Shown in pieces: positions 51,600 through 62,818 of a stretch of 64,000 nucleotides of DNA (its first letter is position 1; each line of letters starts with the position of its first letter). This DNA is from Alphaproteobacteria bacterium (lineage in GTDB: Bacteria; Pseudomonadota; Alphaproteobacteria; SMXQ01), in NCBI GenBank assembly GCA_035714115.1, contig DASTMO010000078.1, forward strand, positions 42,461 to 106,460, given 5' to 3'. The notes beneath the pieces were generated by a model, which searched no databases, had not been told where the DNA came from, and saw nothing but the letters and a program-made list of their open reading frames with translations. A program made the position numbers and the translations under genes.

Positions 51600-51983
51600 G
51601 TGCAGATCGGCGCCAGCGCCATAACCCCTTACGGGATGCAGTCCAGCGCGACGACAGCGATGTCGGCGCAGGCGGGCGCGCGTGCCTATGCGGAAATGAC
51701 GCCGGTCGCGCCGGTCAGCGAGATTCTGCGCGGCCAGCGCGGCGAAGCTTGGATCGACGCGTCTTGGACCGAAGCGCCCGAGCGCCCAGCCCAGATCGAT
51801 CCTTACGAGACCGGCGAAACCGACGGCGCCGTGGCCTTCGCCGCCCAGACCCTGGGCCAGACGGCCGAGCCGCACTATGCCGCCCCGGCGGCCCATCAGG
51901 TCGGCTGCGCCGCCTATCGCGCGGCGCAAGGCGGCCAAGGCGAATTCCGCCGCGGCGACATGGGCATCGACCTGGTCGCCTAA
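51600..51983 (+). CDS. Hypothetical small acidic Ala/Gln-rich protein (start uncertain: GTG 51600 or ATG near 51636)
   Basis: High GC3 codon usage consistent with real coding. No recognisable domain. Sits just upstream of the glycosyltransferase operon. Confidence 0.35.
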   Translation: MQIGASAITPYGMQSSATTAMSAQAGARAYAEMTPVAPVSEILRGQRGEAWIDASWTEAPERPAQIDPYETGETDGAVAFAAQTLGQTAEPHYAAPAAHQVGCAAYRAAQGGQGEFRRGDMGIDLVA

Positions 51984-52101: not shown

Positions 52102-53304
52102 ATGGACGCCGACGCGCGCGCTCCCCATTCCCTTAAAGTGCTTCACGTCATCACCGGCCTCAACACGGGCGGCGCGGAGATGATGCTGACCAAGCTGCTG
52201 GCGCGCCTGCCGCAGACGCAGACGCGCCATGTGGTCGTCTCTCTGACCGGCGGCGGACCGCTAGCCGACCGCATCGCCGGTTATGGCATCCCGGTGATCT
52301 TTCTCGGATTGAATGCCACCGGCTTTCTCGCCAAGGCGAAGGCCGCGTTCGGCGGCCTGCGTCAGCTGCGCCGCCTGATCGCCAAGGAGAAGCCCGACAT
52401 CGTCCAAGCCTGGATGTATCACGCCAACCTGTTCGCCGGCGTCGCCTCCCTCGGCTTGTCGGCCGTGATCTGGGGCATCCGCCAGAGCGACCTCGATCCT
52501 GCCGTCAGCAAACGCTCGACCATCCGTGTCGCCAAGCTCGGCGGTTTCCTCTCGCGCGCCTTGAGCGATTCGATCCTCTGCTGCTCGGAAGTCGCGCGCG
52601 TCGTGCATGAACGCATCGGCTATGATCCAGGCCGCATGGTGGTGATTCCCAACGGTTTCGATCTCGCCGAATTCAAGCCAGACGCGGCGGCGCGCGCCGC
52701 CGTGCGCCGCGAGATCGGCCTCGGCGACGACATTCCCCTCATCGGGCTGATCGCCCGCTTCGATTCGCAGAAAGACCACCGCAATTTTCTCGCCGCCGCG
52801 GCCGAGGTCAGCCGCGCGCTGCCGCAAGCGCGCTTCCTGCTGTGCGGCGGCGGCATCGACGCGCAGAACAAGACGCTGGCGAACTGGATTTCCGAGTTCG
52901 GCCTCGATGGCCGCTGCCACATGCTGGGCGCGCGCGCCGACATGCCGGCGGTGACCGCCGCGCTCGACGTCGCAGTTTCCGCGTCAGCCTTCGGCGAAGG
53001 TTTTCCCAACGTGCTCGGCGAAGCGATGGCCTGCGGTGTGCCCTGCGTCGCCACGGACGTCGGCGATTCGCGCCTCATCGTGCGCGAAACGGGGCGCATC
53101 GTGGCGCCGCGCGAGCCTGAAGCGTTGGCCGACGCCATCGCGAGCATCCTGCGCCTGCCGGCCGCCGACCGTGCCGCGCTCGGCGCCGCCGCGCGCCAAC
53201 GCATCGCCCAGCATTTCGAGATCGGCGTGATCGCCGAGCGCTATCTCGCGCTTTACCGCGACACTCTCGCGGCAAAAGCGCCAGCCGAACGCATGGGAGC
53301 CTGA
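52102..53304 (+). CDS. Glycosyltransferase family 4 (GT-B fold)
   Basis: 400 aa. N-terminal VITGLNTGGAEMM and C-terminal E-x7-E region (EGFPNVLGEAMACGVPCVATDVG). Confidence 0.8.
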   Translation: MDADARAPHSLKVLHVITGLNTGGAEMMLTKLLARLPQTQTRHVVVSLTGGGPLADRIAGYGIPVIFLGLNATGFLAKAKAAFGGLRQLRRLIAKEKPDIVQAWMYHANLFAGVASLGLSAVIWGIRQSDLDPAVSKRSTIRVAKLGGFLSRALSDSILCCSEVARVVHERIGYDPGRMVVIPNGFDLAEFKPDAAARAAVRREIGLGDDIPLIGLIARFDSQKDHRNFLAAAAEVSRALPQARFLLCGGGIDAQNKTLANWISEFGLDGRCHMLGARADMPAVTAALDVAVSASAFGEGFPNVLGEAMACGVPCVATDVGDSRLIVRETGRIVAPREPEALADAIASILRLPAADRAALGAAARQRIAQHFEIGVIAERYLALYRDTLAAKAPAERMGA

Positions 53305-53307
53305 CCC

Positions 53308-55263
53308 ATGTGCGGCATCGCCGGCCTTCTCGACCATTCGCGCACCCTCGGCGGCGACTCGCTGGAATCCCTCGCCGCGCGCATGGCGGGCACGCTGCTG
53401 CATCGCGGGCCGGATGACGGCGGCGCTTGGAGCGCGGCCAACGCCGGCATCGGCTTCGGCTTCCGCCGCCTAGCCATCATCGATCTGACGCCCGCCGGCC
53501 ATCAGCCGATGCTGGCAGACGACGGCAAATCGGCCATCGTCTTTAACGGCGAAATCTACAACGCCGAAGACATCCGCCGCGAGCTCGATGCCATGGGCGG
53601 CGCGCCCAATGGGGGCTGGCGCGGCCATTCCGACACCGAGGTGCTGCTGCAGGCCTGCCGCCGCTTCGGCGTCGTCGGCGCGACCCAGCGGCTCGTCGGC
53701 ATGTTCGCTTTCGCCTTTTGGGACGATGCGGCGCAGCGCTTGACGTTGGTGCGCGACCGCCTCGGCATCAAGCCGCTCTATTGGGCGCGCGCCGGCAAGC
53801 AGTTCCTCTTCGCCTCCGAGCTCAAGGCGCTGCGCGCTCATCCTGACTTCTCGGCTGAGATCGATGACACCGCGCTCTCGGCCTATCTGCGCCAAGCCTA
53901 CGTGCCGGCACCGCGCAGCATCTATCGCGACGCGGCCAAATTGCCGCCCGGCCACATGCTGACCGTGACGGCCGGCGGCGAGCCGCAGATCTCGCGCTAC
54001 TGGAACCTGCGCGACATCGCGCGCGACGGCCAACGCGCCGCCAAGAACAAGCCGATCGACAACGCCGCCGCCATCGAGGAGATGGACAAGCTGCTGCGCG
54101 AGGCGGTGAAGCTGCGCATGATCGCCGACGTGCCGCTCGGCGCGTTTCTCTCGGGCGGCATCGATTCATCGACCGTGGTCGCGCTGATGCAGGCGCAGTC
54201 GGACCGGCCGGTGAAGACCTTCACCATCGGTTTTCACGAGGCGGGCTACAACGAAGCGGCCCACGCCAAGCAGGTTGCGGCCCACCTCGGCACCGAGCAT
54301 ACCGAGCTTTACATCAGTCCCGATCACGCGTTGCAGTTGATCCCGCGCATCCCGGACCTGTTCGACGAGCCCTTCGCCGATCCGTCGCAGGTGCCGACCT
54401 ACCTCGTCTCCGAGATGACGCGCCGCCATGTCACAGTCGCGCTGTCGGGCGACGGCGGCGACGAATTGTTCGCCGGCTATTCCCGCTATTCCTGGGCCGC
54501 GCGGCTGAAGCGCTGGACCGACAGCGTGCCCCTGCCGCTGCGTCAGCTCACCGCCGCCGCCATGCGCGCCGTGCCGACCGAAAGCTGGGATTCGCTGTCG
54601 CGCCTCATTCCCGAGAATCGCCGGCCGCGCCAGTTTGGCCATAAGGTACAGAAGCTCGCCGGCCTGCTCGCCGAGCGTTCGGCCGACGACGTGCGCCGCC
54701 GCCTGGTCGGCTTCTGGCACAAGCCCGAGGAGCTGCTCGGCCGCGAATACGCTCCCTATGACGCGCTGTGGGACGACAGCATCAACGCCGATCTGCCGGA
54801 CTTCACGGCGCGCATGCAATATCTCGACACGGTGACCTATCTGCCGGACGACATCCTGGCGAAGGTCGATCGCGCCAGCATGGCGGTGAGCCTGGAAGCG
54901 CGCGTGCCGCTGCTCGACCATCGCGTGGTCGAGCATGTCTGGAACCTGCCGGCCGATCTCAAGCTGCATCAAGGCAAGGCCAAATGGCTGCTGCGCCAGG
55001 TGCTCTACAAATATGTGCCGGCGTCCCTCGTCGAGCGCCCGAAAATGGGCTTCGCCGTGCCGATCAACAGCTGGCTGCGCGGGCCTTTGCGCGATTGGGC
55101 CGAAAGCCTGCTCGACGAGACCCGCCTGAAGCGCGAAGGCATCTTTGATCCCGCTCCGATACGCCGCAAGTGGCAGGAGCACTTATCCGAAAGCCGGGAT
55201 TGGCAGTTCGATCTTTGGGTCGTACTGATGTTCCAAGCTTGGCATGAAAGGTGGCGGCCGTGA
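53308..55263 (+). CDS. Asparagine synthase (glutamine-hydrolysing) family amidotransferase
   Basis: MCGIAG N-terminal nucleophile Cys2. SGGIDSS PP-loop. 651 aa. Confidence 0.85.
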   Translation: MCGIAGLLDHSRTLGGDSLESLAARMAGTLLHRGPDDGGAWSAANAGIGFGFRRLAIIDLTPAGHQPMLADDGKSAIVFNGEIYNAEDIRRELDAMGGAPNGGWRGHSDTEVLLQACRRFGVVGATQRLVGMFAFAFWDDAAQRLTLVRDRLGIKPLYWARAGKQFLFASELKALRAHPDFSAEIDDTALSAYLRQAYVPAPRSIYRDAAKLPPGHMLTVTAGGEPQISRYWNLRDIARDGQRAAKNKPIDNAAAIEEMDKLLREAVKLRMIADVPLGAFLSGGIDSSTVVALMQAQSDRPVKTFTIGFHEAGYNEAAHAKQVAAHLGTEHTELYISPDHALQLIPRIPDLFDEPFADPSQVPTYLVSEMTRRHVTVALSGDGGDELFAGYSRYSWAARLKRWTDSVPLPLRQLTAAAMRAVPTESWDSLSRLIPENRRPRQFGHKVQKLAGLLAERSADDVRRRLVGFWHKPEELLGREYAPYDALWDDSINADLPDFTARMQYLDTVTYLPDDILAKVDRASMAVSLEARVPLLDHRVVEHVWNLPADLKLHQGKAKWLLRQVLYKYVPASLVERPKMGFAVPINSWLRGPLRDWAESLLDETRLKREGIFDPAPIRRKWQEHLSESRDWQFDLWVVLMFQAWHERWRP

Positions 55264-56186
55264 GCGACGGCACGACAGAAGCGACGCCGAAAGCCCGCGT
55301 GTCTTCCTGGCGGACGGCGATTCCCTGGTGGGTGAAGATCACCGCGAAGGTCGCGTTGAGCCGCCTGCCGGTGAGCGGGCGCGTCTGGCAGCAGCTGCGC
55401 ATCTTCTCGCCCGGCGACATGCTGCTGCCCGATTACGCCATCGGCGTGTTTCGCGCCCACTACCAGCGCGCCGGCCGTCCCGCACCGGGTTTCACCTATC
55501 TGGAATTGGGACCGGGCGATTCGCTCGCCACCGCCGCGGTCGCTTGGGCGCATGGCGCGGCCGGCGGCTGGCTCGTCGATGCCGGCGCTTATGCCGCGCG
55601 CGACATCGACCTCTATCGTCCGTTGCTCGACCGTCTGGCCGAACAGCATGAGGCGCTCGGCCTGCTGCGCGACGTGCGCGGCCTGAAAGATTGCGGTTCG
55701 GTCGCCGAGCTGCTCGAACGAACCGGTTGCCGTTTCCGTGAAAACGGCCTCGCCGATCTCAAGGCTATTCCCGAGGGCAGCATCGACTTCGTGCTGTCGC
55801 AAGCGACGCTCGAGCATGTGCCGCGCGCCGAGTTCGCCGCGACCATGCGCGAGCTTTACCGCCTGATGAAGCCGGGCGCGGCCAGCTCGCACCAGATCGA
55901 TTTCAAGGACCATCTCGGCGGCTCGCTGCACAACCTGCATTTCTCCGAAGGCTTCTGGGAGAAGCCCTGGTTCGCGCGGCGCAGCGGGTTCTACACCAAC
56001 CGCCTGCAGCTCTCCGACGTGCTGCGCGACATGGCCGCTGCCGGCTTCGCCGTCGAGATCGTTCAGAAAGAGACCTGGGACGCGCTGCCGGTCGAGAAGA
56101 GCCGTCTGGCCATGCCCTTCCGCGAGCGATCCGACGAAGATCTCAAGACCAAGAGCGCGGAACTGATCGCCAAGAAACATGCCTGA
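55251..56186 (+). CDS. Class I SAM-dependent methyltransferase
   Basis: GTG start overlapping the asnB-like stop. LELGPGDS SAM-binding motif I. Confidence 0.6.
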   Translation: MAAVSDGTTEATPKARVSSWRTAIPWWVKITAKVALSRLPVSGRVWQQLRIFSPGDMLLPDYAIGVFRAHYQRAGRPAPGFTYLELGPGDSLATAAVAWAHGAAGGWLVDAGAYAARDIDLYRPLLDRLAEQHEALGLLRDVRGLKDCGSVAELLERTGCRFRENGLADLKAIPEGSIDFVLSQATLEHVPRAEFAATMRELYRLMKPGAASSHQIDFKDHLGGSLHNLHFSEGFWEKPWFARRSGFYTNRLQLSDVLRDMAAAGFAVEIVQKETWDALPVEKSRLAMPFRERSDEDLKTKSAELIAKKHA

Positions 56187-57339
56187 CGGCCTTTCCGGCT
56201 CCAAGACGCTGCTGTTTCTCGTCACCGAGGATTGGTACTTCTGCTCGCACCGCCTGCCGATCGCGCGCGCGGCGCGCGACGCCGGTTATGACGTGGCGGT
56301 GGCGACCCGCGTGGCGGCCCATGGCGAGGCGATCCGCGCCGAGGGCTTTCGCCTGATCCCGCTCGCCAAGCTCGGCCGCAGCATGGGCAATCCGCTGCGC
56401 GAACTGTCGGGCCTGCTCGAAGTCGTCCGGCTCTATCGCCGCGAGAAGCCCGACATCGTCCATCACGTCGCGCTCAAGCCGGCGATCTTCGGCTCGCTCG
56501 CCGCGCGAATCGCCGGCGTTAAGCGCACCGTCAACGCCATTGCCGGCCTCGGCAGCATCTTTTCCTCGCAGAGCGCCAAAGCGCGCCTGCTCCGCCCTGT
56601 GGTGAAGCTCGCCTTCCGCCTTCTGCTCAACCGCGAAGGCGCTGCCGTGATCGTGCAGAATCCAGATGACGGCCGCCTGCTGACCGGCGGCGGCCTCGTC
56701 GATCCGGCGCGCCTTACCTTGATCAAGGGCTCGGGCGTCGATCTGGCGCGCTTCGCCGCCACGGCTGAACCTGTGACCGACGCGGTCCATCCGCCGATCG
56801 CCACGCTGGTCTCGCGCATGCTGTGGGACAAGGGCGTTGGCGTGCTGGTCGAGGCGGCCCGTCTTCTGCGCGCGCGCGGCGTTCCCTTGCGCGTGCGCCT
56901 TGCCGGCACGCCGGACCCCGAAAACATGGGCTCCATCCCCGAGGAACAGTTGCGCGCCTGGCATGACGAAGGCGTTGTCGAGTGGATCGGCTTTTGCGAC
57001 GATGTGGCGGGCCTTTGGCGGGCCAGCCATATCGCCGTGCTGCCCTCCTGGTATGGCGAAGGCGTACCGAAAAGCCTGCTCGAAGCCGCCGCAGCCGCGC
57101 GGCCCATGGTCGCCGTCGACGGCCCGGGCCTGCGCGAGGTGGTGACGGACGGAGAGACCGGCCTGCTGGTCGGCCCGCGCGATGCCGCCGCCTTGGCCAG
57201 CGCGCTGCAGCGGCTCGCCGAGGACGGCGCGATGCGCCGGCGCATGGGCGAAGCTGCGCGAAGACGCGCAGAGCATGAGTTCGGCGAAGCCGCGGTGGCC
57301 GAAGCGACCTTGGCGCTGTACCGCCGCTTATTGACGTAG
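56179..57339 (+). CDS. Glycosyltransferase family 4 (GT-B fold)
   Basis: 386 aa. C-terminal EGVPKSLLEAAAAARPMVAVDGPG E-x7-E-like motif. 8-bp overlap with the methyltransferase. Confidence 0.75.
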   Translation: MPDGLSGSKTLLFLVTEDWYFCSHRLPIARAARDAGYDVAVATRVAAHGEAIRAEGFRLIPLAKLGRSMGNPLRELSGLLEVVRLYRREKPDIVHHVALKPAIFGSLAARIAGVKRTVNAIAGLGSIFSSQSAKARLLRPVVKLAFRLLLNREGAAVIVQNPDDGRLLTGGGLVDPARLTLIKGSGVDLARFAATAEPVTDAVHPPIATLVSRMLWDKGVGVLVEAARLLRARGVPLRVRLAGTPDPENMGSIPEEQLRAWHDEGVVEWIGFCDDVAGLWRASHIAVLPSWYGEGVPKSLLEAAAAARPMVAVDGPGLREVVTDGETGLLVGPRDAAALASALQRLAEDGAMRRRMGEAARRRAEHEFGEAAVAEATLALYRRLLT

Positions 57340-57356
57340 GGAGAGATCGACAGGCC

Positions 57357-58544
57357 ATGAGCCGCGCGCCGCGCCGCACCGCCCGCAACAAGCGCCCGAA
57401 AAAGACCGGGGCGCCGGCCGCCACGCGCCTGATCCGCACCGCGCGCGAGGAGGATATTCCCGCCCTGTTGATGATCGAGCATCAGTCCTTCCCGACCGAC
57501 CGCATCTCGCAACGCTCTTTCCGCTACATGCTGACCAAGGGCAACGCCTGCACCCTGGTCGAGGCCGACCGTGCGAGCGGCGAGATCCGCGGCTACGCCA
57601 TGGTCTCCTTCAACCGCTCGACCTCGCTGGCGCGGCTCTATTCGATCGCGGTGGCGCCGCGCTGGCGCGCCAAGGGGGTCGGCCGCGCCCTGCTGCGCGC
57701 TGCCGAAGAGGCCGCGCGCGAGAAATCCGCCGCCTACATGCGCCTGGAAGTGCGCGCCGAAGACAAAGACACCCAGGCCTTCTATCGCAGCATGGGCTAC
57801 AAGCCCTTCGGCACCCACAGCCAGTATTATGACGACGATGCCGACGCCGTCCGCATGGACAAGATCATCGCGCCCGGCCTCGCCCCCAATGTCACCCGCG
57901 TGCCTTACTACCGCCAGCGCCTCGACTTCACCTGCGGCCCGGCGGCGGTGATGATGGCGATGCATGCGCTCGACCGCGACAGGCCGATGACGGCGATCGA
58001 GGAGCTCCGCATCTGGCGCGAGGCGACCACGATCTTCATGACCCAGGGCCATGGCGGCACCAGCGCGCAAGGCCTGGCCCTCGCGGCTTGGAAGCGCGGC
58101 TTCGATGTCGAGCTGCATACCAACGAGCGCGGCGTGCCCTTCGTCGAGAGCGTGCGCAGCGAGCTCAAGCGCGACGTGATCCGCGCGGTCCACCAGGACT
58201 TTCTCGACGAATTGGCGAAGACCAAAGTGCAGCTCGTGCCGCGCGCCCTGAGCTTCAAGCAGCTCCGCGAGAAGTTCGATGCCGGCGGCATCCCCATCGT
58301 GCTGGTCTCCTCCTACCAGTTCGACCGGCGCAAGGAACTGCATTGGGTTGTTGTGACCGGCTACGACGACACCTATGTTTACGTCCACGATCCTTTCGTC
58401 GACGTCGCCGAAGCCAAAAGCCAGACCGACCGCATGCATATTCCGGTCCCGCAACGCATTTTCGACCGCATGGCGCGCTACGGCTCGCGCCATCGCAAGG
58501 CCGCGCTGATCGTCAAGCCGCGCCGCAAGACGAGCGCGCCATGA
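57357..58544 (+). CDS. GNAT N-acetyltransferase fused to a C39-like papain-fold cysteine peptidase domain
   Basis: N-terminal GNAT (RLYSIAVAPRWRAKGVGRALL, motif A). C-terminal DFTCGPAAVMMAMHAL (catalytic Cys) and HWVVVTGYDD (His). Confidence 0.75.
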   Translation: MSRAPRRTARNKRPKKTGAPAATRLIRTAREEDIPALLMIEHQSFPTDRISQRSFRYMLTKGNACTLVEADRASGEIRGYAMVSFNRSTSLARLYSIAVAPRWRAKGVGRALLRAAEEAAREKSAAYMRLEVRAEDKDTQAFYRSMGYKPFGTHSQYYDDDADAVRMDKIIAPGLAPNVTRVPYYRQRLDFTCGPAAVMMAMHALDRDRPMTAIEELRIWREATTIFMTQGHGGTSAQGLALAAWKRGFDVELHTNERGVPFVESVRSELKRDVIRAVHQDFLDELAKTKVQLVPRALSFKQLREKFDAGGIPIVLVSSYQFDRRKELHWVVVTGYDDTYVYVHDPFVDVAEAKSQTDRMHIPVPQRIFDRMARYGSRHRKAALIVKPRRKTSAP

Positions 58545-60136
58545 CGCAGCACGTCATCGTCGTCGACCGCGAGGAAGACTTCAAATGGCCGGCGGAGAAC
58601 CGCCAGGTGCTGACGGCCAAGGAGTTCGTCGGCAACATCCGCGGCAAAGACGGCGGCAAGAAATTTCCCGCTTCGGCGCGCGTCATCAATCTCTGCCGCG
58701 ATTACAGCTACCTTTCGCTCGGCTATTACTCCTCGCTGCTCGCCGAAGCGCGCGGCCAGAAAGTGATTCCCTCCGTCGAGGTGCTGCTCGACCTCAATTG
58801 GAAGCGGCTCTATCAGAGCGATCTGCCGGAGCTGAACGACCTGCTGCGCAAGACCTTCTCCGGCAGCGACGAAGATCCGGTCGGCTTCACCCTGCATCTG
58901 TTCTTCGGCGCCGCCGACGACGTGCGGCTGCGCGAGCTGGCGCGGCGCATCTTCGACCTGTTCCGCGCGCCGATGCTGGCGGTGGATTTGCGCAACGGCA
59001 AGGAGGGCTGGGAGATCACGGCCATCCGGCCGATCTCGATCAAGGATCTGCCCGCCGGGCAGGAAGACGCTTTCGCCGTCGCGCTGGATCGCTATACACG
59101 CAGCGCCTGGCGGGCCGCCAAGCCGGACCAGCCGGCGGTCTATTCCATCGCCATCCTGCACAATCCGCAGGAGCGGCTACCGCCGTCGAACGAGCGCGCG
59201 CTGAAAAAATTCATCAAGATCGGCGAGCAGATGGGCGTCGAGATGGAGCTCATCACGCGCAAGGATTACAGCCGCCTGCCGGAATATGACGCGCTGTTCA
59301 TCCGCGAGACGACCGACCTCGACGACCACACCTATCGCTTCGCGCGCAAGGCCGAGGACGAAGGCATGCCGGTGATCGACAGCCCGCAGGCCATCCTCAA
59401 ATGCACCAACAAGATCTATCTCGCCGAGCTGCTCACCGCCAACGGCGTGCCGACGCCGCGCACGCTGACGCTGGATCGCCGCCAGCTCGATCGCGTCGAG
59501 GCCGAGTTCGGCTATCCGGTCGTCATCAAGATCCCCGACGGCTCCTTCTCGCGCGGCGTGCACAAGGTCGAGAACCGCGAGCAGCTCGAGGAGCTGGCCG
59601 GCAAGCTGTTCGAGGAATCTGACCTGATCCTCGCCCAGGAATTCATGCAGACCGAATACGACTGGCGCGTCGGCGTGCTCAACTACAAGCCGATCTTCGT
59701 CTGCCAGTACTTCATGGCCAAGGGCCATTGGCAGGTGCTGAAGTACCATAACGGCGGCCAGACCGATTACAGCGAGGGCGACGACCGCTCCTTCTCCGTC
59801 GAGGACGCCCCCCGCGAGATCGTCGATATCGCGGTGAAGGCCGCCAGCCTGATCGGCGATGGTTTGCACGGCATCGACATCAAGCAGACGGCAAACGGCG
59901 TCTATGTCATCGAGATCAACGACAACCCGAACATCGACGCCGGCGTCGAGGACGCGGTGCTGAAGGACGATCTCTATCGCCTGATCATTCGCGATTTCGT
60001 CCGCCGCATCGAAAAGCGCAACGCCGCCCTGCCTGCCGCCGCCCGCCATGTGACGCAAGCTCCGGCCCAAGCTCCCGCGCAGCCCGCCGCCGAAGAGGCC
60101 GAGCCAGCTCCCCCGGCGCGCAGCGCCGCATCCTAG
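58541..60136 (+). CDS. RimK-type ATP-grasp ligase with N-terminal RLAN (RimK-like ATP-grasp N-terminal) domain
   Basis: ATG 58541 overlapping the upstream stop. The C-terminal half has ATP-grasp motifs (VVIKIPDGSFSRGVHKV, DWRVGVLN, HGIDIKQTANGVYVIEINDNPN). The N-terminal ~230 aa (LCRDYSYLSLGYYSSLLAEARG) matches RLAN. Confidence 0.8.
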   Translation: MTQHVIVVDREEDFKWPAENRQVLTAKEFVGNIRGKDGGKKFPASARVINLCRDYSYLSLGYYSSLLAEARGQKVIPSVEVLLDLNWKRLYQSDLPELNDLLRKTFSGSDEDPVGFTLHLFFGAADDVRLRELARRIFDLFRAPMLAVDLRNGKEGWEITAIRPISIKDLPAGQEDAFAVALDRYTRSAWRAAKPDQPAVYSIAILHNPQERLPPSNERALKKFIKIGEQMGVEMELITRKDYSRLPEYDALFIRETTDLDDHTYRFARKAEDEGMPVIDSPQAILKCTNKIYLAELLTANGVPTPRTLTLDRRQLDRVEAEFGYPVVIKIPDGSFSRGVHKVENREQLEELAGKLFEESDLILAQEFMQTEYDWRVGVLNYKPIFVCQYFMAKGHWQVLKYHNGGQTDYSEGDDRSFSVEDAPREIVDIAVKAASLIGDGLHGIDIKQTANGVYVIEINDNPNIDAGVEDAVLKDDLYRLIIRDFVRRIEKRNAALPAAARHVTQAPAQAPAQPAAEEAEPAPPARSAAS

Positions 60137-60208
60137 GTCCACGCGCAGCGCCGCATCCTAGGTCCACGCGCAGCGCGGCCTCGTAACAGCTCTGGGTAAC
60201 AGCTCTGG
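60118..60208 (+). repeat. Tandem duplications at the 3' end of the RimK-like gene: 25-bp unit x2.5 (60118-60180) and 13-bp unit x2 (60183-60208)
   Basis: gcgcagcgccgcatcctaggtccac is repeated directly. The first copy contains the stop codon. gtaacagctctgg is repeated directly. Confidence 0.7.
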
Positions 60209-60268: not shown

Positions 60269-61270
60269 ATGCTCGCCGCGCTCCGCAACAGCTTCCTTCT
60301 GGCCCTCGCCGGTCTCGTCGCCTTTGCCAATACGGCAGACGCTCAACAGAAAGTCAGCTTCGGCACCGACTGGCGCGCGCAGGCCGAGCACGGCGGCTTC
60401 TATCAGGCCGTCGCCAAAGGCTTTTATGCCGCGCGCGGCCTCGACGTCTCGCTGCGTCAGGGCGGCCCGCAGATCAACCACGCGCAATTGCTCGCCGCCG
60501 GCCGCGTCGACTTCAGCCTGTCGTCGAACAGCTTCATCGCGCTCAATTACACGCGCGAGCGCATCCCGATGGTCACCGTCGCCGCGCTGTTCCAGAAGGA
60601 TCCGGCGGTGCTGATCGCCCATCCCGGCCAGGGCAACGACACGCTCGAGCAACTGCGCGGCAAGCCGATCTTCATCGGCAGCGACACCCGCGTCGGCTCG
60701 TGGAATTTCCTGCGCGCCCGCTTCGACTACGACAACGCGCAGATCCGCCCTTACACCTTCAGCATCGCGCCCTTCCTCGCCAACAAGGCGACGATCCAGC
60801 AGGGCTATCTCGGCAGCGAGCCGTTCCTGATGGAGCAACAAGGCGTCAAGCCGGTGGTGATGCTGCTCGCCGATGCCGGCTATTCGAGCTACGGCGCGTT
60901 GATCTCGACTTCGATGAAAATGGTCCATGAAAAGCCGCAGATCGTGCAGGCTTTCGTCGATGCCAGCATCGAGGGCTGGTACGACTATCTCTATGGTGAC
61001 CCGGCGCCGGCGAACGCGCTCATCAAGAAGGACAACCCGGAGATGACCGACGACTTGCTCGCTTACGGGCGCGGCAAGATGATCGAATACGGCATCCTCG
61101 ATTCGGGCGACGCGGCCGAGCTGGGCATCGGCGCCATGAGCAACGCGCGCTGGAAGGGCTTCTTCGACATGATGGTGGGCGAAGGGCTCTATCCCAAGGA
61201 GATGGACGTCACCGAGGGCTATGACCTGCAATTCGTCAACAAGCGCGTCGGCGTCCAGTTGAAGAAGTAG
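60269..61270 (+). CDS. ABC transporter substrate-binding protein, NMT1/THI5-like (nitrate/sulfonate/taurine family)
   Basis: 333 aa with a signal peptide (ANTADAQ). Fold family resemblance. Confidence 0.75.
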   Translation: MLAALRNSFLLALAGLVAFANTADAQQKVSFGTDWRAQAEHGGFYQAVAKGFYAARGLDVSLRQGGPQINHAQLLAAGRVDFSLSSNSFIALNYTRERIPMVTVAALFQKDPAVLIAHPGQGNDTLEQLRGKPIFIGSDTRVGSWNFLRARFDYDNAQIRPYTFSIAPFLANKATIQQGYLGSEPFLMEQQGVKPVVMLLADAGYSSYGALISTSMKMVHEKPQIVQAFVDASIEGWYDYLYGDPAPANALIKKDNPEMTDDLLAYGRGKMIEYGILDSGDAAELGIGAMSNARWKGFFDMMVGEGLYPKEMDVTEGYDLQFVNKRVGVQLKK

Positions 61271-61277
61271 GAACCGC

Positions 61278-62045
61278 ATGACGGGCGAGGCTCCACCGCC
61301 CCTGTTGAACCTGCGGGGCGTCACGCATCTCTACGGCACCGGATTGCTGGCGCTCGACGGCGTCGACCTGACGGTGCCGCATGGCGATTTCCTGTCCCTG
61401 CTCGGCCCGTCGGGCTGCGGCAAATCGACGCTGCTGCGCCTGATCGCCGGATTGCTCGCGCCGGCCCGCGGCGCCGTCGATTGGCCGAGCGGCAAGCCCG
61501 CCCCCGGCGATATCGGCTTCGTCTTTCAGGAACCGACGCTGATGCCCTGGGCCAGCGTGACCGACAATGTGCGCCTGCCGCTCAAGCTGACCAAGCGCAG
61601 AGAAAATCCCGCCGAGGTCGCCGCCGCGCTCGACCTGGTCGGCCTCGCCGATTTCGCGGCGGCTTTCCCCAATGAGCTCTCCGGCGGCATGAAGATGCGC
61701 GTCTCGCTGGCGCGCGCCTTGGTGACGCGGCCGAAACTGCTGCTGCTCGATGAGCCGTTCGCCGCCCTCGACGAGATCACGCGCTTCAGGCTCAACGACG
61801 ATTTGCTGCGCATCTGGCGCGAGCGCCAATGCACGGTGATCTTCGTCACCCACAGCGTGTTCGAAGCGGCGTTCCTGTCGCAGCGCGTCGCCGTCATGTC
61901 GGCCAGGCCGGGCCGCATCGCCGCCCTTGAACCGATCTCCTTGCCGGCCCTGCGCGTGCCCGACCTGCGCACCGACGCCGCCTATGGCACGATCTGCCGC
62001 CGTCTCTCCGATCTGCTGGCTGATGCGATGCGGGAGCCGGCATGA
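61278..62045 (+). CDS. ABC transporter ATP-binding protein (NitT/TauT family)
   Basis: GPSGCGKST, LSGGMKMRVSLARAL, LLLLDEPF. Confidence 0.85.
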   Translation: MTGEAPPPLLNLRGVTHLYGTGLLALDGVDLTVPHGDFLSLLGPSGCGKSTLLRLIAGLLAPARGAVDWPSGKPAPGDIGFVFQEPTLMPWASVTDNVRLPLKLTKRRENPAEVAAALDLVGLADFAAAFPNELSGGMKMRVSLARALVTRPKLLLLDEPFAALDEITRFRLNDDLLRIWRERQCTVIFVTHSVFEAAFLSQRVAVMSARPGRIAALEPISLPALRVPDLRTDAAYGTICRRLSDLLADAMREPA

Positions 62046-62818
62046 AAGCCTTCATCGACCGCCTCGCGCCTTACATCCTCGGGCTCATCGCCCTGGCGCT
62101 CTGGGAAGGCTTGACGCGGCTAAATGCCGTGCCGGTCTATGTGCTGCCCGGCCCGCTGCTGATCGCCAAGACCCTGTGGCAGGACGGCGCGAGCCTGCTC
62201 GGCTCGCTTTGGTTCACATTGAAGATCACCGCCCTGGCGCTCGCCGCCGCGACGCTCGGCGGCGTCCTGCTCGCCGTCGTCATGGCGCAGTCGCGCATCC
62301 TCGAGCGCAGCCTTCTGCCCTATGCCGTGATCGCCCAAGTGACGCCGGTGGTCGCCATCGCGCCGCTCATCATCATCTGGGCCGACAACACGACCCTCGC
62401 GCTGGTCATCTGCGCCTGGATCGTCGCCTTCTTCCCGATCACGGCCGCGACCATGACGGGGCTGAACGCCGCCGACCATAATCTGCGCGATCTTTTCCGC
62501 ATCTACGGCGCGAGCCGCTGGCAAAGCTTGCGCCTGCTGCGCGCGCCGGCCGCGCTGCCCTACTTCCTCACCGGCTTGCGCGTCTCGGGCGGACTGTCGC
62601 TGGTCGGCGCGGTGGTCGCCGAATTCGTCGCCGGAACCGGCGGCGCGGAGACAGGCCTGGCCTTCCGCATCCTCGAATCGGGCTATCGGCTGCAGATCCC
62701 GCGCCTGTTCGCGGCGCTGACTTTGCTCGCCGCCGCCGGCATCGTCATCTATCTGGCGCTCGATCTTCTGTCGAAGCTGCTGCTGCGTCGCTGGCACGAG
62801 ACGCATCAGCGCCACTAG
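62042..62818 (+). CDS. ABC transporter permease (NitT/TauT family)
   Basis: 258 aa, six TM helices. 4-bp overlap with the ATPase gene. Confidence 0.8.
   Translation: MKAFIDRLAPYILGLIALALWEGLTRLNAVPVYVLPGPLLIAKTLWQDGASLLGSLWFTLKITALALAAATLGGVLLAVVMAQSRILERSLLPYAVIAQVTPVVAIAPLIIIWADNTTLALVICAWIVAFFPITAATMTGLNAADHNLRDLFRIYGASRWQSLRLLRAPAALPYFLTGLRVSGGLSLVGAVVAEFVAGTGGAETGLAFRILESGYRLQIPRLFAALTLLAAAGIVIYLALDLLSKLLLRRWHETHQRH

Follow-up and report, generated by a model that had tools for sequence, protein, structure and literature searches.

The window analyzed here, a 64-kb stretch of alphaproteobacterial DNA (contig DASTMO010000078.1, with positions counted on the whole stretch), carries on its forward strand a gene at 57357..58544 whose 395-residue product joins an acetyltransferase of the GNAT family to a cysteine peptidase domain of the C39-like DUF3335 family. 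This gene runs directly into a second one on the same strand (58541..60136), which encodes a 531-residue ligase made of an RLAN domain and an ATP-grasp domain of the LysX/ArgX/RimK clade. The two form an obligate cassette without any other dedicated partner. The explanation that we prefer, and to which we give an even chance, is that the cassette encodes a cytoplasmic module, complete in itself, for building, N-acetylating, and trimming a short and probably glutamate-containing peptide, either free or as the tail of a protein.

The bifunctional gene is defined by the list of open reading frames (ORFs), Pfam, NCBIfam, an alignment of relatives, and an AlphaFold2 model. A first-pass annotation, made from the letters alone, had placed a GNAT-peptidase fusion here; its ATG-initiated reading frame is present, as are all three of the motifs that were quoted from it. 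Pfam divides the product into a GNAT and a DUF3335 domain. The match to PF11814 (DUF3335, “Peptidase_C39 like family”) has an E-value of 2.7e-81 and scores 272.4 bits, where the cut-off is 25, and it spans residues 182-386, corresponding to positions 1-205 of the 206 in the model. Residues 52-148 match Acetyltransf_1 (PF00583; E 3.4e-16, 60 bits against a cut-off of 20.7), and there is a weaker Pfam match to Peptidase_C39_2 at 44.5 bits. These domain matches are far above chance level. The protein has at least 3802 homologues, and the same two-domain architecture recurs in thousands of proteins, with NCBI naming the relatives [quoted passage not shown] and JGI labeling them “predicted double-glycine peptidase.” PF11814 itself forms about 600 clusters at 50% identity; GNAT plus DUF3335 is its predominant architecture, and stand-alone and tandem DUF3335 forms also occur. 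The GC content at third codon positions is 0.88, resembling that of the adjoining genes. Residues 1-24 form a basic N-terminal extension that is modeled with low confidence and that is confined in the alignment to the closest relatives.

The active site of the peptidase half can be predicted from its conservation and from its alignment to solved enzymes. Within the domain (residues 182-386, 57900..58514, +), the predicted nucleophile is Cys193 (FTCGP, 57933..57935, +), part of the motif DFTCGPAAVMMAMHAL (residues 190-205, 57924-57971, +). Six residues ahead of it stands Gln187 (57915..57917, +), the predicted oxyanion-hole residue. The predicted general base, His329 (HWVVVTG, 58341..58343, +), opens the motif HWVVVTGYDD (residues 329-338, 58341-58370, +), and Asp345 (58389..58391, +), 16 residues further on, is the predicted third member of the triad. 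Conservation was followed in 82 full-length DUF3335 domains, chosen as representatives of 50%-identity clusters from a library of 1.84 billion proteins. Gln187 and Asp345 are each kept in all of them (82/82, 100%), His329 in 80/82 (98%), and Cys193 in 77/82 (94%), with Ser or Gly in the other five. The first-pass annotation had described a Gly-Pro preceding the cysteine. The order is in fact the reverse, with Cys193 followed by Gly194 and Pro195, and it is the invariant glutamine that sits upstream.

A profile of 30 diverse DUF3335 domains, searched against every PDB sequence, matches 6mpz best (E 3.8e-6), a double-glycine protease domain whose Gln21, Cys27, His101, and Asp117 align with Gln187, Cys193, His329, and Asp345. 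The Q-x5-C and H-x15-D spacings are identical in the two proteins. The stretch from Cys to His is longer here, at 136 residues versus 74, the ~62 additional residues lying after the Cys helix and before the His strand. The AlphaFold2 model, built from 104 sequences (pLDDT 90.6, pTM 0.81), superposes on solved papain-fold (clan CA) enzymes. In it, Cys193 stands directly ahead of helix 194-205, His329 is in strand 328-336, and Asp345 comes right after strand 340-344, as is usual for the papain fold. This secondary-structure placement, together with the alignment to solved peptidases, suggests that Cys193 and His329 are juxtaposed. Given the predicted active site, the C-terminal half is plausibly a papain-fold cysteine peptidase that is competent for catalysis; the earlier proposal of a C39-like peptidase with Cys and His intact is thus borne out by Pfam, by conservation, by the 6mpz alignment, and by the model.

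The acetyltransferase half (residues ~24-170, 57426..57866, +) has its nearest PDB sequence and structure matches among N-alpha-acetyltransferases of the RimI, Ard1, and Naa10 type. Its motif A, already noticed in the first pass, is confirmed: the acetyl-CoA pyrophosphate-binding loop lies within VAPRWRAKGVGRALL (residues 99-113, 57651..57695, +), and R104, G107, and G109 of this R-x-x-G-x-G signature (R104-A-K-G107-V-G109) are nearly invariant in the family alignment. Because of these matches and of the conserved loop, the GNAT half looks like an acetyl-CoA-dependent alpha-amine acetyltransferase. Its best NCBIfam match is rimI (TIGR01575), at 74.2 bits versus a trusted cut-off of 86.4, so it cannot be assigned as RimI itself. 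E131, in RLEVR, is invariant across the family and presumably corresponds to the RimI general base. Y143, which varies between Tyr and Phe within the family, presumably occupies the position of the general-acid Tyr in RimI.

The ATP-grasp ligase that the first-pass annotation had placed next to the fusion is real, and its start codon overlaps the stop codon of the first gene in an ATGA (58541..58544, +), an arrangement in the sequence that points to translational coupling. The ligase consists of an RLAN domain (PF14401 in Pfam, ligase residues 44-179, 58670..59077, +), an ATP-grasp catalytic region (residues ~200-497, 59138..60031, +), and a disordered tail rich in Ala, Pro, and Gln from about residue 498. 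A 9-nt in-frame indel at ~60050-60060 affects this tail, which reads QAPAQ---APAQ here and QAPAQAAAAPAQ in GCA_044226095.1. The nearest solved structures belong to the LysX/ArgX/RimK clade, the ATP- and Mg-binding residues are intact, and K330, R376, D446, K448, E458, and N460 are invariant. Alignment with hhalign places R255, R376, and N460 on R64, R189, and N262 of canonical RimK, residues whose roles have been described (PMC10092738). The ligase bears RLAN where RimK has Rimk_N, and it scores only 34.3 bits against the RimK equivalog PRK10446 (cut-off 331), 98.1 against the rimK_fam subfamily model (cut-off 143.4), and 27 against the Ngg model TIGR03103 for the N-acetylglutaminylglutamine amide (NAGGN) synthetase (cut-off 569). 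A true RimK, such as the one at locus L033, reaches 231 bits on PF08443 and has Rimk_N. In the RLAN domain, the motif INLCRDYSYLSLGYYxSLLAEARGQKVIPS is nearly invariant, and a sequence-profile search found no solved homologue of the domain. Its sole conserved cysteine, C52, is replaced by Ser in 12 of 89 relatives, which makes a role of RLAN as thiol carrier unlikely.

One genome per species was scanned, which gave at least 589 loci with a relative of the fusion, and gene order was read from the best 80. In 76 of them the very next gene downstream, in the same orientation, encodes an RLAN-ATP-grasp ligase, and the two genes mostly overlap slightly or sit within ~60 nt of each other. The functional link to the ligase that the first-pass annotation had proposed is thus strongly backed by gene order and by the stop/start overlap. 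Two of the four exceptions are at a contig end, and in the other two (L023 and L062) a DUF155 gene follows instead. The pair occurs in Alpha-, Beta-, and Gammaproteobacteria, Azospirillum brasilense being one carrier, in one metagenome-assembled genome of Leptospiraceae, and in several of Planctomycetota. All-against-all clustering of the ORFs at the 80 loci yielded no third conserved gene, only the two core genes and shadow ORFs. Within 1.5 kb of the pair at more than 70 loci, a search for conserved small ORFs (25-89 aa) gave only shadow ORFs of ArgE and M14 genes. No carrier protein, phosphopantetheinyl transferase, or decarboxylase is found among the conserved or recurrent neighbors, and no conserved precursor peptide or transporter stands beside the pair.

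To our knowledge, every characterized member of the ligase clade attaches an amino acid, as a rule L-Glu, to a carboxylate at the C-terminus of a protein or on the tail of a cofactor. In the module that we propose, the RLAN ligase would likewise spend ATP on joining amino acids, L-glutamate most likely, to a carboxylate, and its product would be a short alpha-peptide, made from free amino acids or on the C-terminus of a protein. The GNAT domain would then acetylate the free alpha-amino end of this peptide, and the Cys193/His329/Asp345 domain would cleave it, so as to set its length, release it, or recycle it. We infer that the three activities share one substrate, that it is Glu-rich, and that the steps follow this order. 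The closest precedent by analogy is RimK with RimB: RimK polyglutamylates ribosomal protein S6 and also makes free poly-alpha-Glu, and RimB, its operon partner, is a protease dedicated to shortening these Glu tails, and it also stimulates RimK (PMC11957791). It is from this analogy that the proposal of making, capping, and trimming a peptide is drawn, and the “ligate, acylate, cleave” logic put forward in the first pass would be a reasonable one for such a module. A fuller version would be a system for writing, capping, and erasing, in which the ligase builds an oligo-amino-acid chain (probably oligo-Glu), the fused partner N-acetylates and cleaves it, and RLAN serves as a docking or specificity domain. 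The chain would then be either an N-acetylated acidic metabolite, resembling NAGGN or N-acetylaspartylglutamate (NAAG), or a tag added reversibly to the C-terminus of a housekeeping protein. Taken as a whole, this version is speculative and rather unlikely.

The genes around the pair in other genomes give some context for this proposal, since the recurrent neighbors include hydrolases of peptides or of N-acyl groups. ArgE, ArgA, M14, and DUF155 are the recurrent ones, each restricted to some lineages. Genuine argE (542 bits) and argA (659 bits) genes lie divergently upstream at 24 and 15 gammaproteobacterial loci, respectively, for example L070 6679-7947 (-) and L069 6492-7874 (-), many of them in genomes of Thiohalomonadaceae, Ectothiorhodospiraceae, and Competibacter. 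This adjacency may be inherited synteny, or it may be a link to N-acetyl-glutamate metabolism. A divergent carboxypeptidase of the M14A-like type stands beside the pair at nine loci and at L082. It was considered as a CCP-type deglutamylase and set aside, its nearest relatives being carboxypeptidases T, A, and B, and its likeness to the CCP-like 3l2n marginal.

DUF155 genes (RMND1/Sif2 family, with a C-terminal membrane helix) are found beside the pair at six loci and at L082. They lie immediately downstream in L023 3919-6053, L062 696-2612, and L082 8001-11425, and in the first two of these the DUF155 gene directly follows the GNAT-peptidase gene, without an intervening RLAN ligase. At L033 (2525-8401), L015, and L017, which belong to one gammaproteobacterial clade, the pair is followed in the same direction, across very short gaps, by DUF155, a RimB-type retropepsin (PF05618), canonical RimK, and a deacylase of the AstE/AspA type. 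This apparent operon would combine two ligases of the RimK family with two unrelated proteases.

DUF3335 domains without a GNAT partner show other surroundings. On plasmid pSINME02 of Sinorhizobium meliloti AK83 (L092 5953-6621), a distant DUF3335 protein that stands alone (“peptidase C39 family protein,” 28% identical) ends a five-gene operon for an Opp/Dpp-like ATP-binding cassette (ABC) system made of a substrate-binding protein, two ATPases, and two permeases. This setting is consistent with an action of DUF3335 on peptides. Close by, on the other strand, is an AsnB-like gene. Four proteins (P0167, P0185, P0190, and P0262, with loci L087 and L091) have two tandem DUF3335 domains and no GNAT. 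The contigs of the stand-alone and tandem forms are mostly too short to show context. The tandem protein of L091 is the only one with usable context, and it has no ATP-grasp neighbor; the one in L087 adjoins a divergently transcribed radical-SAM/SPASM gene.

Several observations weigh against a glutamate-based peptide module. The preference for glutamate comes from the relatives of the ligase alone, and the ligase scores under the trusted cut-offs of RimK, LysX, and MptN, which means that it may join something else. The three residues that it shares with RimK, R255, R376, and N460, are generic to the ATP-grasp clade. The poly-Glu contacts of RimK were tried as a guide to specificity and abandoned, as only the equivalents of R64, R189, and N262 could be aligned, all of them generic in the same way. 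The results are compatible with either hydrolysis or acyl transfer by the Cys domain. The ArgE and ArgA neighbors are true housekeeping genes of arginine metabolism, the association with rimB-rimK is confined to three closely related loci, and most of the accessory links are restricted to a single clade. In the window, moreover, the pair looks co-transcribed with polysaccharide genes. Finally, the family does not conserve a basic pI, which would suit an acidic substrate: the value is 10.1 for the window protein, with a family median of 8.2-8.5 and many acidic members. For this reason we draw nothing about the substrate from pI, and its use as a sign of a polyanionic substrate was dropped. A conserved acidic C-terminal tail, which could have been a self-substrate, is also absent, as both proteins usually end in basic residues.

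Among the other explanations, the one that survives best is that the Cys domain is not a peptidase at all and instead works as a transacylase or transpeptidase, as CtaG, BtrH, and phytochelatin synthase do, with Cys193 passing an acyl or peptidyl group to an amine. The module would then make amide bonds by two routes, through ATP-grasp chemistry and through a thioester, and would add N-acylation by GNAT. CtaG is a proven transacylase that partners with an ATP-grasp ligase, CtaD, and HHpred ties it both to PF11814 and to BtrH; its Cys/His/Asp triad is the same, and its H128 and D144 have the same spacing of 16 as His329 and Asp345 (PMC7183216). DUF3335 also clusters with BtrH_N and phytochelatin synthase in a 2023 classification of papain-like enzymes (PMC10318531), and our DUF3335 profile weakly touches BtrH_N-domain structures near the His-Asp region (E 0.14). 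However, the Pfam scan gives no BtrH_N match, and the characterized transacylases of the cluster draw their acyl groups from a thioester on a carrier protein. The neighborhood of the pair has no conserved carrier, and the serine found in place of C52 makes RLAN itself an improbable substitute. We consider this alternative unlikely, at about the level of the fuller version described above.

Slightly less probable again is that the fusion matures an N-terminus, the peptidase trimming a protein, the GNAT domain acetylating the newly exposed alpha-amine, and the ligase modifying the same protein elsewhere. Fusing a peptidase to an N-terminal acetyltransferase would suit consecutive action on one N-terminus, and N-terminal acetyltransferases are what the GNAT half most resembles in sequence and structure. 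There are also precedents for a protease followed by such an enzyme, namely ACTMAP with NAA80 on actin, and AMPP2 with GNAT7 on RbcL (PMC13557074). The nearest structural relatives of the ligase all act on protein C-termini (LysW for LysX and ArgX, S6 for RimK), which would agree with a modification of the same protein.

A role of the pair in decorating or processing exopolysaccharide or another surface polymer, for example by making an N-acetylated amino-acid side branch, is very improbable. This possibility arises from the window, where four polysaccharide-type genes (GT4, AsnB-like amidotransferase, methyltransferase, and GT4; 52102..57339, +) end 18 nt before the GNAT-peptidase gene. All six genes from 52102 to 60136 run in the same direction, with junctions of at most 18 nt or overlapping, and a scan for an internal promoter or terminator, in itself uninformative, gave no convincing one. 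The four closest genomes (L001-L003 and L084) share this arrangement, and they are the only ones to do so. Outside the relatives with at least 72% identity, the pair and the polysaccharide genes are unlinked, and glycosyltransferases lie upstream at only 2 of ~70 loci. Neither protein has a signal peptide or a membrane segment, and a papain-fold peptidase would have no obvious role on a glycan.

Least probable is a double-glycine leader peptidase for a bacteriocin or another ribosomally synthesized and post-translationally modified peptide, a reading that the C39 annotations and the JGI label suggest and the 6mpz match favors (the first-pass annotation had also likened the domain to bacteriocin-processing C39 enzymes), and which we reject because PF03412 (Peptidase_C39) scores only 19.4 bits, below its cut-off of 22, and only over residues 323-354, because no PCAT-type ABC transporter is fused or adjacent, and because the small-ORF search gave only the ArgE/M14 shadow ORFs, with window junctions (18 nt and an overlap) that leave no space for a leader gene. 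An anti-phage defense system was also considered and dropped, as PADLOC matches neither protein.

The rest of the window adds a few observations. The one ABC system near the pair, of the NMT1-family binding-protein type (PF09084) at 60269-62818, is not conserved with it, and scans of the window with Rfam and for tRNAs gave no match. A public genome, GCA_044226095.1 (L084), is ~97% identical to the window, with the same gene order. A perfect 25-bp tandem repeat of 2.4 copies, CGCGCAGCGCCGCATCCTAGGTCCA, lies at 60117-60176 across the ATP-grasp stop codon, and it is followed by a perfect 13-bp repeat in two copies at 60183-60208. The same repeats are present in L084, which indicates that they are no assembly artifact. 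Within the polysaccharide block, the methyltransferase gene (55251-56186, against L084 6743-7642) has only ~58% protein identity and ~55-75% DNA identity per 60-nt block, and the genes that flank it are 97-99.7% identical in protein. To judge from the sequences, this island of divergence suggests allelic replacement by recombination. Just upstream of the block, a 127-residue ORF without a Pfam match (51600-51983, +) has a counterpart that is called as a gene in L084 (3083-3466).

The window protein is an ordinary member of its family, and the family has been little described. In a literature search, no paper named RLAN or PF14401 or linked C39 with RimK. A 2009 study by Iyer et al. reportedly describes a neighborhood of GNAT-peptidase and RLAN-ligase genes. 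The papain-like enzyme classification notes the GNAT fusion of DUF3335, citing Iyer et al. 2009 (PMC10318531); this classification and the CtaG paper (PMC7183216) were the only two mentions of the family that the search found. The fusion and its link to ATP-grasp are already catalogued through Pfam DUF3335, the NCBI product name, and the classification; this is therefore not a newly discovered architecture, and what we describe is a biochemically unexplored family. The cassette is present in at least 589 species-level genomes, yet it has no member of tested activity. With three catalytic centers intact and no other dedicated gene needed, it lends itself unusually well to reconstitution, which would take two proteins together with ATP, acetyl-CoA, and amino acids, with A. 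brasilense as a tractable carrier. If it were solved, the Pfam families DUF3335 and RLAN would both gain a function.

Comparison with known systems helps to place the cassette. Within PF11814, the 395-residue protein is a typical, full-length, and high-scoring member with the predominant GNAT plus DUF3335 architecture, and its sole distinction is the basic N-terminal extension of ~24 residues, which is common to its closest relatives. It shares the papain fold and the aligned Gln, Cys, His, and Asp residues with the C39 domains of the PCAT/AMS transporters (LahT150 6mpz, ComA, and PCAT1). It differs from them in having no ABC exporter as a fusion or neighbor, in its ~62 extra residues, in having no leader-peptide gene, and in falling below the PF03412 cut-off. 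A GNAT enzyme, a RimK-like ligase, and a hydrolase are also combined, for the synthesis and turnover of N-acetylated acidic peptides, in the bacterial pathway for NAGGN (Ngg/AsnO with an M42 peptidase) and the mammalian one for NAAG (NAT8L with RIMKLA/B). The domain arrangement and the peptidase class are different there, and the NAGGN synthetase model is far from matched by our ligase. RimI, Ard1, and Naa10 are the top matches of the GNAT half, which is fused here to a peptidase. ACTMAP is presumably homologous to the DUF3335 domain. In ACTMAP with NAA80 and in AMPP2 with GNAT7, a peptidase likewise exposes an N-terminus that a dedicated GNAT enzyme acetylates, but these are separate eukaryotic or plastid proteins with known targets (PMC13557074). 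CtaG and BtrH, which work with CtaD and BtrJ in the making of closthioamide and butirosin, are distant papain-fold kin with the same triad, the same spacing, and an ATP-grasp amide ligase as partner (PMC7183216). Unlike the cassette, they act in biosynthetic clusters, thiotemplated on carrier proteins. The closest analogy is with RimK and RimB, including the RimB-RimK hybrid, where a RimK-family ATP-grasp ligase is also encoded with a dedicated protease. Here, in contrast, the predicted protease is a papain-fold cysteine enzyme rather than a retropepsin (PF05618), the ligase carries RLAN, and a GNAT domain is added. Reconstituting the cassette would show whether RimK-type ligases have a second mode, controlled by a cysteine protease, beside that of RimB-RimK.

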